Assembly: GCA_037443365.1 (NCBI GenBank)
Contig: JBBIOM010000004.1
Span: forward strand, 32,001-96,000
Direction: 5' to 3'
Source: Armatimonadota bacterium
Lineage (GTDB): Bacteria; Sysuimicrobiota; Sysuimicrobiia; Sysuimicrobiales; Humicultoraceae
DNA length: 64,000 nucleotides
In this document: one piece after another, positions 21,342 to 54,192 of the stretch
Position numbering within the stretch: the first letter of the stretch is position 1
How the letters are laid out: the number at the start of each line of letters is the position of its first letter
The notes under the pieces: model-generated
The model's input: the letters and a program-made list of their open reading frames with translations, nothing else
Told to the model about the DNA's origin: nothing
Database searches by the model: none
Position numbers and translations under genes: made by a program

Positions 21342-21436
21342 GGAGGGCATTGTTCGCTGGTGCGGGCCCCGGTCTTCAAAACCGGTCGCTGGGCTTGACG
21401 GTCCAGGCTGGGTTCGATTCCCAGGGCCCTCCGCCA
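21342..21436 (+). tRNA. selC: tRNA-Sec (anticodon UCA)
   Basis: 95 nt; 6-bp D stem with 4-nt TGGT loop; anticodon loop CT-TCA-AA (TCA 21376-21378); long variable arm; CTGGG-TTCGATT-CCCAG T arm; G73-CCA end. Confidence 0.96.
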
Positions 21437-49337: not shown

Positions 49338-49424
49338 TGGTGCGGGCGGAGGGACTCGAACCCCCACCGGCTTGCGCCGACCAGATCCTAAGTCTGGCGC
49401 CTATGCCAGTTCGGCTACGCCCGC
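49338..49424 (-). tRNA. tRNA-Leu (anticodon UAG)
   Basis: Cloverleaf; CCAGA-CT-TAG-GA-TCTGG anticodon arm, long variable arm, encoded CCA. Confidence 0.95.
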
Positions 49425-49449
49425 GGAGGAATCATGCCTTCTTCGACCG

Positions 49450-49525
<76 letters not shown>

Positions 49526-49597: not shown

Positions 49598-50731
49598 TCA
49601 CGGGCAGTGCAGCCGCGTCAACTGCGGGTGGCGCTCGGTGATCAACTTGCGGTAGATGTCGTTGACCTCACCGTAGCGGCGCTGCGCCAGGTCGTCGTCG
49701 TAGATCGTCTTGATCGGGCGCTCGAAGAATGACCGCATGCCGCAAAAGGTCGCGGCCGCCTCGGCCGGGGAGCCCGGCGGGCCCTCCATCCTGAACCTGG
49801 GCAGGATCGGGAACAACCCGTGCCCTACGAGGCCACGCTGCCCATCGTCCGACAGCAGGTACTGCAGGAATGCCCTGGCGGCGCGCGGGGAACGCGCGCC
49901 GGCGATCACGGCCGTGGGCGCCGGGGAGATCCACGCGTACGGAGGGCTCGCAAAACGCAGATCGTACCCGGCCAGCACCTCCTGAAACGCCATGTAGCTC
50001 AGCACGCCGAAGCCCACCGCGAACTCCCCCCGCGCCACGAAGGTGGGTACGTCTCGGCTGCGCGTGACGAAGAGGCCGGTGTTGGCCCCCACGCGTTGAG
50101 CCCACTCCCAGCCCCTCTGCCAGCCACGCAGCTGGAGAATCACCTCCAGCGACGCGTGGTGCGAGCCCGAGCGGTCAGGGGTGGTCTGGACGATCTGCCC
50201 CTTCAGGCGGCAGTCCGTCAGGTCGTCCCACCCTGCCGGAGGGTCGGCGCCGATGCGGCGCATGAGCCGTGGGTGGTGGACGATGCCGGCCGCGGTCAGG
50301 GCCGTGCCCACCCAGACGCCGCCCTCGTGCCGCAGCGGTATCGCACGGGGTTCACCGATGCGCGCCGGGATCTCCCGGACCACGCCGTCGGGCATCTCGT
50401 GCGGTAAGAGCAGGCGGCGGTCGGCCAGGTCGTCGAGCAGTTCGGCCTCGCCCGCCCACAGCAGGTCGGCTTCGGGGCGGCCCTTCCACTCGATTATGCG
50501 CGCGTAGGCCGCAGGCGATCCCGAGGAGACGATGATCGGCCGCAGCGGATTCCCGAACCGTCGCCGCGCGTGCTCGGCGAAGCGCTCCGCCGTGGCATCG
50601 GCCACCTCGCGCGGTATGGGCGTAATGATGACCAGGCGGTCTTCTATCAGGGCTTGCCCGGCGCCCGGTCCGGGGGCGAGGGCAACGAGCACGGCGATTG
50701 CTACGGACAGGCTGAGCGCACGTCGCGACAT
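49598..50731 (-). CDS. Orphan ABC transporter substrate-binding protein (iron/polyamine/thiamine-like cluster)
   Basis: Signal peptide; PEADLLWAG, PDRSGS, VARGEFAVG and ARAFLQYLLSDDGQ motifs; no adjacent permease of its family. Confidence 0.75.
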   Translation of the reverse strand: MSRRALSLSVAIAVLVALAPGPGAGQALIEDRLVIITPIPREVADATAERFAEHARRRFGNPLRPIIVSSGSPAAYARIIEWKGRPEADLLWAGEAELLDDLADRRLLLPHEMPDGVVREIPARIGEPRAIPLRHEGGVWVGTALTAAGIVHHPRLMRRIGADPPAGWDDLTDCRLKGQIVQTTPDRSGSHHASLEVILQLRGWQRGWEWAQRVGANTGLFVTRSRDVPTFVARGEFAVGFGVLSYMAFQEVLAGYDLRFASPPYAWISPAPTAVIAGARSPRAARAFLQYLLSDDGQRGLVGHGLFPILPRFRMEGPPGSPAEAAATFCGMRSFFERPIKTIYDDDLAQRRYGEVNDIYRKLITERHPQLTRLHCP

Positions 50732-50753
50732 CGTCCTTGCTCCTTTGCGGCGC

Positions 50754-50784
50754 AAAGCAAGAGACGCCCGACTGTGGGCGTCCC
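50754..50784 (-). terminator. Terminator-like hairpin in the leader of the binding-protein gene
   Basis: Minus strand GGGACGCCC-ACAGTC-GGGCGTCTC (9 bp, one GU) followed by TTGCTTT. Confidence 0.55.
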
Positions 50785-50822
50785 TGGGGCCTGCCGAACG
50801 CGCCAGACTACCGCGGCCACCA

Positions 50823-50865
50823 CCTCATACGGGCTGTACCGTCGACCCCGGAATTCCACCGGGCC
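50823..50865 (-). ncRNA. 3'-half FMN-riboswitch-like RNA element (P5-P6 only)
   Basis: GGCCCGGTGGAATTCCGGGGTCGACGGTACAGCCCGTATGAGG aligns without gaps to the RFN 3' half as I recall it (GA-P5 with UGRAAUU loop-RCCGAC-RGU-ANAG-YCYG-GAUG), with compensatory stem changes; no 5' half found. Confidence 0.6.
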
Positions 50866-50871
50866 ACGCCC

Positions 50872-50900
50872 AGCATACGACCTCCCGGGGCGCCTGGCAA
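50872..50900 (-). promoter_or_regulatory. sigma70/SigA promoter directly upstream of the half-RFN element
   Basis: TTGCCA (50895-50900), 17-bp spacer, TATGCT (50872-50877) on minus; predicted +1 near 50865. Confidence 0.7.
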
Positions 50901-50922
50901 CCACCTGGCAGCGGCGCTCGCC

Positions 50923-51780
50923 CTACTTATCGGACTCCACCAGGCCCTTCACGAACCAGCGTTGCATGATGACGACCACCGCGACCGGCGGCAGCATCGC
51001 CATCACCGCCGTGGCCATGATGAGGTTCCAGTCGTTCTGCGCGTCCCCCACGCCTATCATCTTGGTAATGCCGATAACAATGGTGTTCATCTCCTTGCTG
51101 GTCGTGATCAGCAGCGGCCAGAGGTACTGGTTCCAACCGTAGATGAACAGGATGACGAAGAGCGCGGCGATGGTAGTGGTGGACAACGGCATCAGGATGC
51201 TCCAGAAGAACCGCATAGGGCCCGCGCCATCCATCTTCGCCGCGTCCACCAGCTCGTCGGGAACGGTCAAGAAGAACTGCCGGAAGATGAGCGTGGCGGT
51301 TGCTGAAGCGACAAGGGGCACGATCAACCCCTGGTACGTGTTGAGCATGCCGAGGTTGGAAATCACGGCGTAGGTGGGGATGATGCGCACTTCGACCGGC
51401 AGCATCAGCGTGATGAAGATCATCCAGAAGAAGAACATGCGGAGCGGAAAGGCGAAGAACGCAACGGCGAACGCCGAGATGATCGAGATGGTGATCTTAC
51501 CGGTCGCGATCACAAGCCCCATGATCAGGCTGTTCAGCAGCATGCGCCGGACCGGCGCCGCGCCCTTGACCCGTGTCCCCTCGCCCGAAGTCCACGCCTG
51601 GCTGTAGTTCTCGATCGCATGCGGTCCGGGCCGGAGCGGCATCTCGCCGCGCGCGATGGTCCCCACGTCGTACGTCGAGCCCATGAGCGCGACGAAGACG
51701 GGAAACACGAAGATCGCAACCCCCAGGAGCAGGATCAGGTGCGCCTGCCAGCCCCTGCCGAAGCGCGACGCCCGAACCAT
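50923..51780 (-). CDS. ugpE: sn-glycerol-3-phosphate ABC permease
   Basis: TLMLPVEVRIIPT, ASATAT, DAAKMDGAG and FIYGWNQYLWPL motifs. Confidence 0.9.
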   Translation of the reverse strand: MVRASRFGRGWQAHLILLLGVAIFVFPVFVALMGSTYDVGTIARGEMPLRPGPHAIENYSQAWTSGEGTRVKGAAPVRRMLLNSLIMGLVIATGKITISIISAFAVAFFAFPLRMFFFWMIFITLMLPVEVRIIPTYAVISNLGMLNTYQGLIVPLVASATATLIFRQFFLTVPDELVDAAKMDGAGPMRFFWSILMPLSTTTIAALFVILFIYGWNQYLWPLLITTSKEMNTIVIGITKMIGVGDAQNDWNLIMATAVMAMLPPVAVVVIMQRWFVKGLVESDK

Positions 51781-52661
51781 CAGTAGTGCACCCTCCGTTC
51801 GATGTATCGGAACTGCATGGCGGTCAGGGTGATTACAACCAGCAAGAGGATCACCGACTGCGCCGAGGAGCCACCGAGATCGAGGTTGACGACGCCGTCC
51901 ACGTAGACCTTGTAGATCAAGGTCTCGGTGGCCTTGGCGGGACCGCCACGCGTGAGCGAGTGGATCACGCCGAATGTGTCAAAGAAGGCGAATATCACGT
52001 TGACGACGATCAGGAAGAACGTCGTCGGGGAGAGCAGCGGGAAGATGACCTTCCAGAACCGCTGCCGGGGCGTAGCCCCGTCCACCGAGGCGGCCTCGAG
52101 CACTGACCGTGGAATTGATTGCAGTCCCGCCAGGAAGAAGATGAAGTTGTAGCTGACCTGCTTCCATGCGGCCGCCAGGATGACCAGCAACAGCGCATGG
52201 GTGCCGTTGAGCGTGTAGTCCCAGTGGATGCCAACCTGGTTGAGCGTCCGCCCCAGGATGCCGATCGTCGGGTGGAAGATGAACAACCACAGCGACGCGG
52301 CCACGGCGGGGGCCACCGCGTAAGGCCAAATCAGGAGGGTCTTGTAGACGCCGGCGCCGCGGATGGGTTTGTCGGCGGTCACTGCCAGTAGCAACCCCGA
52401 GCCCATCGCCAGCAGGATCACCGCCCCCGAGAACAAGATAGTGTTCCCCACGGCCTGCAGGTAGGCGTCGTCGCTGAGAACGTACGCGAAGTTCTCGAAC
52501 CACACAAACGCCGTGCGCGTGCCAAACGGGTTCTGCCGCAGCAGCGACTGGGCGACGGCCTGACCGGCTGGCCAGAAGAAGAACACGATGGTAATCGCCA
52601 GCTGGGGCGCCAGGAGGACGTAGGGCAGGACCTTGTTGTTGAAGATCGAGCGCTTGGTCAT
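51780..52661 (-). CDS. ugpA: sn-glycerol-3-phosphate ABC permease
   Basis: [29 protein letters not shown] and PLLSPTTFF motifs. Confidence 0.9.
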
Positions 52662-52745: not shown

Positions 52746-54125
52746 CTACGGGGCGTTGGCCCGCTCAAAACGTCGCAGGACCTCGTTGCTGCGGCGGGTC
52801 GCGGCGTCCATCGCCTGCTTCGCCGTCTGCGTCCCCTGAAACGCCTTCTCCCACTCCTCGTAGAAGATCACCCGGATCTCAGGCATGTTCCCCAACCGCA
52901 GCCCCATGGTGTTCCGAGTAGGCCGCGACCTGGTCAGCTGCTTGAACGGGATGTCCGCGCCGGGGTTCGCCTGCCAGTACCCCAGTGCCTGGACGAGCGT
53001 CATGCCCGGGAAGGTGATCGGCACGAACCCGGTCTCCATGTGCCACTTGGCAACGATCTCGGGCTGGCTGATGAACTTGAAGAACTCTGCCACGGCCTTG
53101 TACTCGTCGGCGGTCCGCCGCGGGCTGGTCATGGCCCAGAACGACGCGCCGCCGATGATCGAGTTCTTGGGCGCACCCTTCACGTCGTCGTAATAGGGGA
53201 GGTAGGTCACACCCCACGAGAACTTCGCCTCGCGGATCACCCGTGCGCGCAGCCCGGACGAGCCATGGATGATGGCGCACTCGCCCGAGGGGAACAGCGC
53301 GTCGCCTGCGGAGTCGCGGCCGCCGTACTTAAACGTTCCCTCGCGGTGCATGTCCATCAGGGTCTGAAGGTGCCGGACGTGGAGCGGGCTATTAGTCTGC
53401 ATCGCGGTGTCCATGCCCTCGAACCCGTTCATCTTCGTCGCCAGCGGCACATCGTGGATGGCGCTGAAGTTCTCGAGGTTCGTCCACGTTGGCCACGCCA
53501 TGGTGAACCCGCAGGGAGCGGCGTTGGTCTGCCTGATGCGCGTCGCGGCGGCCCGCAGCTCGGCCCAGGTCTGCGGCGGCTTCTCCGGATCCAGGCCCGC
53601 CCGCCGGAAGGCGTCCTTGTTGTAGAACGTGATCGGGGTCGAGCTGTTGAACGGCATCGAGATCATCTTGCCGTCCGATGAGCTGTAGTAGCCCCGCACC
53701 GCCGGCAGGTAGATGCTCGGGTCGAAGGAAACACCGGCCTCCTTGAACAGCTGGTGGACCGGCTTGATGGCGCCCTGGGCAGCCATCATCGTGGCCGTCC
53801 CTACCTCGAACATCTGAACGATGTGGGGCGCGTTCCCCGCGCGGAACGCGGCGATAGCCGCCTGCATCGTCTCGGGGTACGCCCCCTTGAAGGCCGGGTT
53901 CACGCGGTACTTCGTCTGCGAGTTGTTGAAGTCAAAGGCGATGCCCTCGAGGATGTCCCCCAGCGGCCGTGTGAGGCCGTACCAGAAGTCCACTGTGACG
54001 CGCCCTCCGGGCACTTGCGCGACCAACGTCGGGGAGAAACCCGCCCCGGCCGGGAGCGATCCGGCAAACGTCCCGCCGCTGACCAGCGCGAGGACGAGGA
54101 TGATTCCCATCAGCACTCTATTCAT
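52746..54125 (-). CDS. ugpB: sn-glycerol-3-phosphate-binding protein
   Basis: AAFRAGNAPHIVQMFEVGTATMM, SMPFNSSTP and IIGGAS motifs; signal peptide; AGGAGG RBS. Confidence 0.9.
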   Translation of the reverse strand: MNRVLMGIILVLALVSGGTFAGSLPAGAGFSPTLVAQVPGGRVTVDFWYGLTRPLGDILEGIAFDFNNSQTKYRVNPAFKGAYPETMQAAIAAFRAGNAPHIVQMFEVGTATMMAAQGAIKPVHQLFKEAGVSFDPSIYLPAVRGYYSSSDGKMISMPFNSSTPITFYNKDAFRRAGLDPEKPPQTWAELRAAATRIRQTNAAPCGFTMAWPTWTNLENFSAIHDVPLATKMNGFEGMDTAMQTNSPLHVRHLQTLMDMHREGTFKYGGRDSAGDALFPSGECAIIHGSSGLRARVIREAKFSWGVTYLPYYDDVKGAPKNSIIGGASFWAMTSPRRTADEYKAVAEFFKFISQPEIVAKWHMETGFVPITFPGMTLVQALGYWQANPGADIPFKQLTRSRPTRNTMGLRLGNMPEIRVIFYEEWEKAFQGTQTAKQAMDAATRRSNEVLRRFERANAP

Positions 54126-54192
54126 TACCCGTCGCCTCCTGTGATAGTTGTAGGTGCCTTGTTCGCCCGGCGACCGCATCTTACCTTCAGGC

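Follow-up and report, generated by a model that had tools for sequence, protein, structure and literature searches.

A probable deletion remnant of a full-length FMN riboswitch upstream of a secreted solute-binding protein gene in an Armatimonadota genome

The DNA considered here (the window) is a stretch of 64,000 nt from contig JBBIOM010000004.1 of an Armatimonadota genome (GCA_037443365.1), and the element under study lies on its minus strand, in the 191-nt spacer (50922-50732) that separates the stop codon of an ATP-binding cassette (ABC) permease gene, ugpE (50923-51780), from the start codon of a gene coding for a secreted ABC-type solute-binding protein (SBP; 49598-50731). Along this strand, the spacer carries a promoter-like site, the P5-P6 half of a flavin mononucleotide (FMN) aptamer, a strong hairpin and a Shine-Dalgarno (SD) site, followed by the SBP gene. 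We propose that the element is very probably what a deletion has left of an ordinary full-length FMN riboswitch controlling the SBP gene, and not a new class of sensor. An earlier reading, made from the letters of the DNA without database searches (hereafter the sequence-only reading), had favored a minimal half-aptamer and had named a decayed riboswitch remnant as its alternative; the latter is supported by the full-length state of the orthologous elements and by the singleton status of the half.

The promoter-like site consists of a -35 hexamer TTGCCA (50900-50895) and a -10 hexamer TATGCT (50877-50872) separated by a 17-nt spacer. The sequence-only reading had placed it directly next to the half-aptamer, and a consensus scan confirmed it as the sole promoter-like site between 50600 and 51100, with 9 of 12 positions matching where shuffled sequences are expected to yield 0.1 site. 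The same scan recovered the site in a relative, and the motif TTGCNN-N17-TATNNT stands 24-33 nt upstream of J1/2 in all 14 full-length orthologous loci described below. Hexamers spaced by 16-18 nt and a conserved position, as expected of a sigma-70-type promoter, are thus both found. The site at 50872-50900 is predicted to be the native promoter of the riboswitch-SBP unit, with a transcription start that would lie near 50865, as placed solely from the position of the -10 hexamer.

On the minus strand, the segment GGCCCGG-UGGAAUU-CCGGG-GUCGA-CGG-UACAGC-CCG-UAUGAGG starts 5 nt 3' of the -10 hexamer. In the spacer, no Rfam family attained its gathering score; under permissive settings, cmscan matched RF00050 (FMN) at 50815-50916 with 26.6 bits (E-value of 4e-4 for a 451-nt stretch and of 4.9e-4 for the whole genome), against a curated gathering score of 66.2 bits. 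P5, J5/6, P6 and J6/1 of the model aligned with high posterior probability, which bears out the assignment of the segment to the P5-P6 half of the FMN aptamer in the sequence-only reading. The part of the model lying 5' of P5 was placed only by means of large deletions, onto the promoter, and the P1-P4 half is therefore absent from the locus, as that reading had also stated. The retained 3' half covers 50812-50870, i.e., the same columns as in full-length orthologs, and comprises J4/5 at its start, P5 (50863-50859 paired with 50851-50847, loop 50858-50852), J5/6 (GUCGA) followed by P6 (50841-50839 paired with 50832-50830, loop 50838-50833), and J6/1 followed by the orphaned 3' strand of P1 (approximately 50821-50812).

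The origin of this half is best seen at the orthologous loci. RF00050 was searched in 61 related genomes and the SBP in 34 genomes of the family. Orthologs of the SBP were found in 15 relatives belonging to four genera (69-89% identity), and in all 15 an RF00050 match is located approximately 100-250 nt upstream of the gene on the same strand. Seven of these matches score 66.9-71.6 bits and seven others 59.6-65.8 bits over the whole model; the fifteenth (G024, 43.5 bits) is cut by a contig end, without which the count is 14 of 14. For six of the leaders, cmscan found P1 to P6 present, L2 carrying an inserted hairpin of 21-23 nt and the P3 and P4 stems being short. P1 to P6 were likewise recovered by RNAalifold from the 14 full-length leaders, together with double changes that keep the pairing in P1 (columns 24/172 in two sequences and 30/166 in one) and in P4 (columns 94/117 in eight). 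Because the orthologous loci show descent from a full-length FMN riboswitch, the RF00050 match in the window is not due to chance.

The same comparison bears on three core changes that the sequence-only reading had listed for the half, namely GA to GG in J4/5, CCGAC to UCGAC in J5/6 and GGAUG to GUAUG in J6/1. The changes are real but are not special to the half, being common among the full-length orthologs: GG and GUAUG occur in all 14 SBP-linked full-length elements, and J5/6 reads UCGAC in 10 and CCGAC in 4. The SBP-linked FMN riboswitches form a conserved subtype scoring 59.6-71.6 bits, near or just under the Rfam cut-off, and marked by GG for GA in J4/5, by GUAUGA for GGAUGG in J6/1 (14 of 14) and by the hairpin insert in L2. 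The riboswitch upstream of ribD in the same genome (L001:1501-1649) is canonical, unlike this subtype. As judged from these alignments, the junction changes are what sets the SBP-linked subtype apart from the ribD copy, not the half from the whole.

Compared with its closest relatives, G002 and G005, the window lacks exactly 99 nt, which correspond to the 5' leader, the 5' strand of P1, J1/2, P2, P3 and P4. The window follows its relatives base for base up to TATGCTGG and resumes at GCGTGGCCC; with G002 and G005, the collinear part begins at the stop codon of the permease gene, includes the promoter and ends at TATGCTGG, and collinearity is restored from GCGTGGCCCGG on. As a result, P5 lies 2 nt from the -10 hexamer in the window vs 101 nt in both relatives. 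Alignment with relatives places the deletion junction at GGGCGTG (50865-50871, minus strand), where the BLAST pieces obtained against two relatives overlap. In the relatives, the 99 nt are bordered by GGTCGTG on the left and by GGGCGTG on the right, which together form an imperfect 7-nt direct repeat (6 of 7 positions identical). A 99-nt deletion between these repeats, seen in this genome alone, took away the leader, the 5' strand of P1 and P2-P4, so that the native promoter now runs almost straight into J4/5-P5-P6, followed by the orphaned 3' strand of P1 and the former expression platform. That the promoter was joined to the retained half by a deletion is shown by this alignment.

Could the missing 99 nt be a product of the metagenome assembler, either as a false deletion or as a join between two strains? 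The genome is assembled in 69 contigs, full-length related strains occur in the runs of the same study and similarity to relatives changes right at the junction, all of which speak for such an error. Logan contigs (contigs, not raw reads) from four public runs were compared with the window over 50300-51400. In run X1, in which 97% of the sampled words occur and which probably represents the source sample, the separate Logan assembly has a single 1942-nt contig that crosses the junction at an even depth of 27, without a gap and with one difference. In run X4, which belongs to another study, the aligned pieces of a 4431-nt contig overlap at 50865-50871 and have 92 further letters between them, which amounts to the 99-nt form, and contigs from runs X2 and X3 depart from the sequence of the window at 50864 and 50871. 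The deleted form rests on real junction-spanning words and the full-length form belongs to related strains. Furthermore, the join is non-homologous (only GG and the repeat with 6 of 7 identical positions), and a k-mer assembler would have needed real reads spanning the junction to make it. A chimera formed within the conserved P5-P6 would yield a full-length element, not a deletion, and similarity returns to background beyond the block of ugp genes inside the same long contig. An assembly artefact is consequently considered very unlikely.

The element is a homolog of RF00050, but a broken copy. Homology follows from the RF00050 match at the orthologous position in all 15 relatives that have the gene and from flanks that align base by base, and the conserved core of J5/6 and J6/1 is present, as UCGAC and GUAUG. 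The score of 26.6 bits falls below the gathering score, compared with 99.2 bits for the ribD copy of the same genome, and only P5, P6 and the 3' strand of P1 are left of a six-helix junction that should be closed by P1. Not all ligand contacts are present either. According to the part of Atilho et al. (2019; PMC6298564) that lists them, A48 and A85 of the FMN aptamer sandwich the flavin, which pairs with A99, and the ribityl-phosphate is held by G10, G11, G32, G62 and G84 (3F2Q numbering). Placed by this numbering and by J1/2, J2/3 and J3/4 of the orthologs, contacts 10, 11, 32 and 48 would lie 5' of J4/5, in the deleted part. Since half of the six-helix junction and four of the eight contacts are gone and P1 cannot form, the remnant RNA should be blind to FMN. 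It is with high confidence that we regard the remnant as blind to its ligand and the SBP gene as predicted to be no longer flavin-responsive.

The retained half is well preserved. Of its 58 aptamer positions, 47 do not vary among the 14 full-length orthologs. Two of these have changed in the window: 50833, at the 3' end of L6, and 50815, a base of P1 whose A partner is deleted, in a pair that is A-U in all 14 full-length orthologs. In the platform, the window differs at 1 of 16 invariant positions (50761). Such changes at invariant positions would look like a recent loss of constraint, on small numbers. With 45 of 47 invariant positions kept, P5, P6 and J5/6 are almost unchanged, the promoter, the hairpin and the SD site are in place, and the SBP gene is intact, as would be expected of a functional minimal half-aptamer whose P5-P6 RNA dimerises or pairs in trans, builds a pocket for flavin or a new ligand and regulates the SBP gene. 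The preservation is nevertheless explained by a recent deletion in a strongly constrained parent, and the distribution of the motif speaks against a functional half. First, the half is a singleton: every one of the 14 orthologous loci that can be assessed has a full-length element, the fifteenth being interrupted by its contig end. Second, when RF00050 matches were compared across 94 genomes of the group, a set from which search filters lose some weak matches, the element of the window was the only one of approximately 100 nt with just the 3' half, and no other half-size element turned up. Third, in the genome itself (2.2 Mb in 69 contigs), a canonical FMN riboswitch scoring 99.2 bits stands 5' of ribD, and the RF00050 scan found no separate complementary P1-P4 half at E<=10 apart from that complete element. 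Finally, both changes in the half hit positions that are invariant in all orthologs, L6 included, and four of the eight nucleotides reported to contact FMN (10, 11, 32 and 48) lie 5' of the breakpoint by the numbering in the part of PMC6298564 concerned. Of three outcomes that the sequence-only reading had named as refuting it, two, full-length orthologous loci and a half standing alone, were found, and the half-aptamer inference is therefore unsupported. We consider a functional half-aptamer to be next to impossible, and give the same negligible chance to a half that would still work as a sensor in this strain, whether loop-paired copies rebuild the pseudo-symmetric pocket or the RNA acts in trans with that of the ribD riboswitch. 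A third RF00050 match in the genome (13.3 bits, E-value of 1.95) was discarded as noise, since a rescan of its locus failed to recover it.

The loss of the aptamer left an expression platform in place downstream, and the two overlapping hairpins described there by the sequence-only reading both appear in the minimum free energy (MFE) fold. The first is terminator-like and extends over 50760-50785 of the minus strand (AGGGACGCCC-ACAGUC-GGGCGUCUCU, then UGCUUUG). It has 10 bp, is GC-rich, ends in a partly U-rich tail and is conserved in 14 of 14 orthologs; its ensemble probability is ~1. In the tail, position 50761 bears a T>C change in the window at a site that is invariant in the 14 orthologs. 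A simple terminator scan, whose rule is 5 T in 8, called no terminator in the window nor in two relatives. The second hairpin (50736-50761, minus strand) pairs the U-rich tail with the SD region (AAGGAG, 50745-50740) ahead of the ATG start codon of the SBP gene (50731-50729). Relatives show a similar but weaker pairing, and sequence conservation is limited to the U-rich strand. Over the whole 201-nt intergenic stretch, fold stability is not above that of shuffled sequences (z of -0.81).

Lesions destroying the aptamer of OFF-type riboswitches normally derepress the genes downstream. In ribO/RFN mutants of the Bacillus subtilis rib leader, lesions that block ligand-dependent folding are reported to derepress the downstream genes. 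Those mutants carry laboratory point mutations and concern a biosynthesis operon of a Firmicute, whereas a natural 99-nt deletion upstream of a binding-protein gene is dealt with here. Because of this usual outcome, our guess, held at somewhat better than even chances, is that the SBP gene may now be always on, through the conserved promoter and read-through from ugpE; the weakened U-tail would also help its expression. The terminator-like hairpin is still intact, and permanent attenuation by this structure is an alternative that we rate as a real prospect, a little short of an even chance. It is unlikely, albeit conceivable, that the deletion represents an adaptive rewiring by which a flavin-uptake binding protein of a new type would have been made constitutive.

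A further structure is found in the leaders of full-length orthologs (L047:2629-2870 on the minus strand, L045, L044 and others), where a GAAGGCU-CGC-AGCCUUC hairpin stands upstream of P1. Its formation would make the 5' strand of P1 unavailable, and its sequence repeats the P1 3' strand. Its counterparts in G031 (GAAGAC/GUCUUC) and G033 (GAAAG/CUUUC) carry apparently compensatory changes, and RNAalifold pairs the upstream GAAGG with the U-tract that follows the terminator, with covariation (columns 15-19 with 227-231). The upstream GAAGG hairpin may provide an extra switch layer, and the whole of its segment is deleted in the window.

The sequence on the other side of the junction offers an indication of how the deletion could have occurred. 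Upstream of the spacer, ugpE is preceded by ugpA (51780-52661) and ugpB (52746-54179), all on the minus strand, ugpB and ugpE being NCBIfam UgpB and UgpE equivalogs. A block of high identity to two same-genus genomes extends from 50865 to approximately 54300 of the minus strand and ends at the junction. In 500-nt windows, identity is 93-97% inside the block, promoter included, and 75-88% outside; the left edge is approximate, between 54000 and 55000. The window is syntenic with G002 and G005 over tens of kilobases at ~79-83% identity, and at the junction identity breaks from 94.8% upstream to 81-82% downstream. The X4 contig presents the same picture, with 8 differences in 536 nt of ugpE (98.5% identical) vs 65 in 349 nt of the SBP gene. 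In three genus mates (G004, G006 and G007), the riboswitch and the SBP gene are present and ugpE is not directly upstream. The pattern of ugpB-ugpA-ugpE looks like recent interspecies gene flow of a glycerol-3-phosphate uptake cassette. The ugp block would have been recently exchanged between lineages, and its right end would have been joined illegitimately inside the riboswitch leader, thereby producing the 99-nt deletion. On the basis of these identity profiles, we regard as moderately probable that the deletion was made as the ugp block recombined in, one of its ends being resolved illegitimately in the riboswitch.

Alternatively, the deletion could have been local, by replication slippage between GGTCGTG and GGGCGTG, and be unrelated to the ugp exchange; the coincidence of the boundaries would then be due to chance or to a homologous crossover in the conserved P5-P6, and the remnant would remain a remnant. 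Short direct repeats at both ends of a deletion are typical of slippage. The edge of the high-identity block can moreover be placed no more finely than between 50871 and ~50823, because P5-P6 is identical in all relatives. Conversely, in a window of 64 kb, no more than 50 nt separate the end of the deletion from the break in identity. Slippage alone is thus a credible explanation, to which we give roughly one chance in three.

Several points weigh against the deletion-remnant reading or against what has been built on it. The loss of ligand sensing and of flavin response is an inference. Equilibrium folding cannot tell an on state from an off state, as the probability of the terminator hairpin is ~1 in the truncated leader and in eight full-length leaders alike (MFE and ensemble folds). 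When folds were ended at the 5' arm of the terminator, the partners of this arm differed among relatives. Its best partner according to RNAduplex was the P4-3'/P5 region in 10 of 15 leaders, that of the window included, and J1/2 or P2-P3 in the 5 others, these pairings being of the G-run/C-run type and without a shuffle control. No antiterminator could be singled out. The X1 contig is likely to derive from the sample that gave the genome and therefore checks the assembly, not the population, and only one genome of this species was found. A 23-nt word covering the junction had no match in Joint Genome Institute (JGI) metagenome contigs, and neither had a 28-nt word characteristic of the P1 3' strand in this genome, a result that shows neither fixation nor rarity. 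The link with recombination is circumstantial: in addition to the loosely placed block edge, ugpBAE is somewhat better conserved anyway between G002 and G005 (~96% vs ~90%).

The SBP encoded downstream of the remnant (377 aa) is of the AfuA/FbpA-like group. It matches Pfam SBP_bac_11, SBP_bac_6, SBP_bac_8 and SBP_bac_1, and among NCBIfam models only phnS2, weakly. Its closest solved relatives are AfuA (4r72) and a pyridoxal phosphate (PLP)-binding protein (6wce, ligand by entry title); the ligands of 4r72 are presumably sugar phosphates. The protein is 89-91% identical to those of genus mates, which are 95-97% identical among themselves. Its distance to outgroups is 0.746 vs 0.737-0.757 for the genus mates, i.e., it is as far from outgroups as they are, and there is thus no sign of acceleration or of gene decay. 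Relaxed selection on the SBP was accordingly not supported, its outgroup distance matching that of genus mates and the whole genome being only ~79-83% identical to G002 and G005. A paralog of the SBP (56-61%) occurs in many of these genomes; in the genome of the window, its neighbor is an ABC ATPase gene and no FMN match accompanies it.

In the relatives, a lone AfuA/FbpA-like SBP gene stands behind a full-length FMN riboswitch in four Armatimonadota genera (loci L044-L058); tRNA genes usually come next, and a permease gene never does. In the window, two tRNA genes directly follow the SBP gene (49341-49525, minus strand), and this order of SBP and tRNA genes is kept in the five relatives scanned. 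The arrangement resembles that of some Deinococci, for which the relevant part of the 2015 survey of riboflavin transporters (PMC4418817) describes monocistronic ribY, a lone binding-protein gene behind an FMN riboswitch and without a permease gene. RibY (COG0715) and RfuA are given there as FMN-riboswitch-controlled binding proteins of riboflavin ABC systems. The SBP would differ from RibY in its Pfam families, its nearest structures are AfuA and the PLP-binding protein, and it is of a type that does not figure among the binding proteins named in that part of the survey. The AfuA-like SBP may bind FMN or riboflavin. The combination of a full-length FMN riboswitch with a lone AfuA-like SBP in several Armatimonadota genera could thus point to a new flavin- or FMN-binding protein.

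Among described systems, the element shares P5, J5/6, P6, J6/1 and the 3' strand of P1 with the RF00050 FMN riboswitch, from full-length members of which it descended, and differs by its missing 5' strand of P1, P2, P3 and P4. The variant FMN riboswitches presented in the section of Atilho et al. (2019; PMC6298564) devoted to them are full length, and the guanosines that hold the ribityl-phosphate are changed in them, typically to adenosines. As in these variants, some junction nucleotides depart from the FMN consensus here, and the variants too are often linked to transporters; unlike in them, the aptamer is truncated and the junction changes are inherited from full-length orthologs. The SBP-linked orthologs keep G at the aligned J4/5 position, GA in J5/6 and A in J6/1, bases that would correspond to G62, G84, A85 and A99. 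For riboswitch decay, the nearest case that we found concerns singleton glycine riboswitches (PMC6944388), whose ghost aptamer, in the portion of that work concerned, is widespread and conserved and still scaffolds a complete ligand-binding aptamer. In both cases a part of the riboswitch decays and a recognisable remnant stays; unlike with ghost aptamers, no complete aptamer is left here and the remnant is found in one genome only. A natural class of half-FMN riboswitches was not found in the literature on truncated, remnant or variant FMN aptamers, supplements being outside the search, nor was any paper on riboswitches in Armatimonadetes.

The locus would provide a clean natural case of riboswitch loss, in which one deletion at a microhomology, probably where a recombined gene block ends, has left the promoter and the platform. 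The outcome amounts to an "aptamer knock-out" of natural origin in a gene under flavin control. The locus also serves as a warning that weak, seemingly global Rfam matches located beside promoters may be products of deletions.

Other low RF00050 scores among the genomes of the group belong to longer elements, at 35.3 and 34.8 bits in two genomes and at 19.9 bits in G032, and to a match at a contig end (20.5 bits). In G008, a genome from another genus of the family, an element on the minus strand (L039:3421-3555; G008:C3:40720-40854) scores 23.1 bits and has good J1/2, P2 and J5/6 and no P4-P5; this is another decayed FMN element or else a divergent one. Elsewhere in the window, a tRNA-Sec gene lies on the plus strand at 21342-21432 (70.9 bits).

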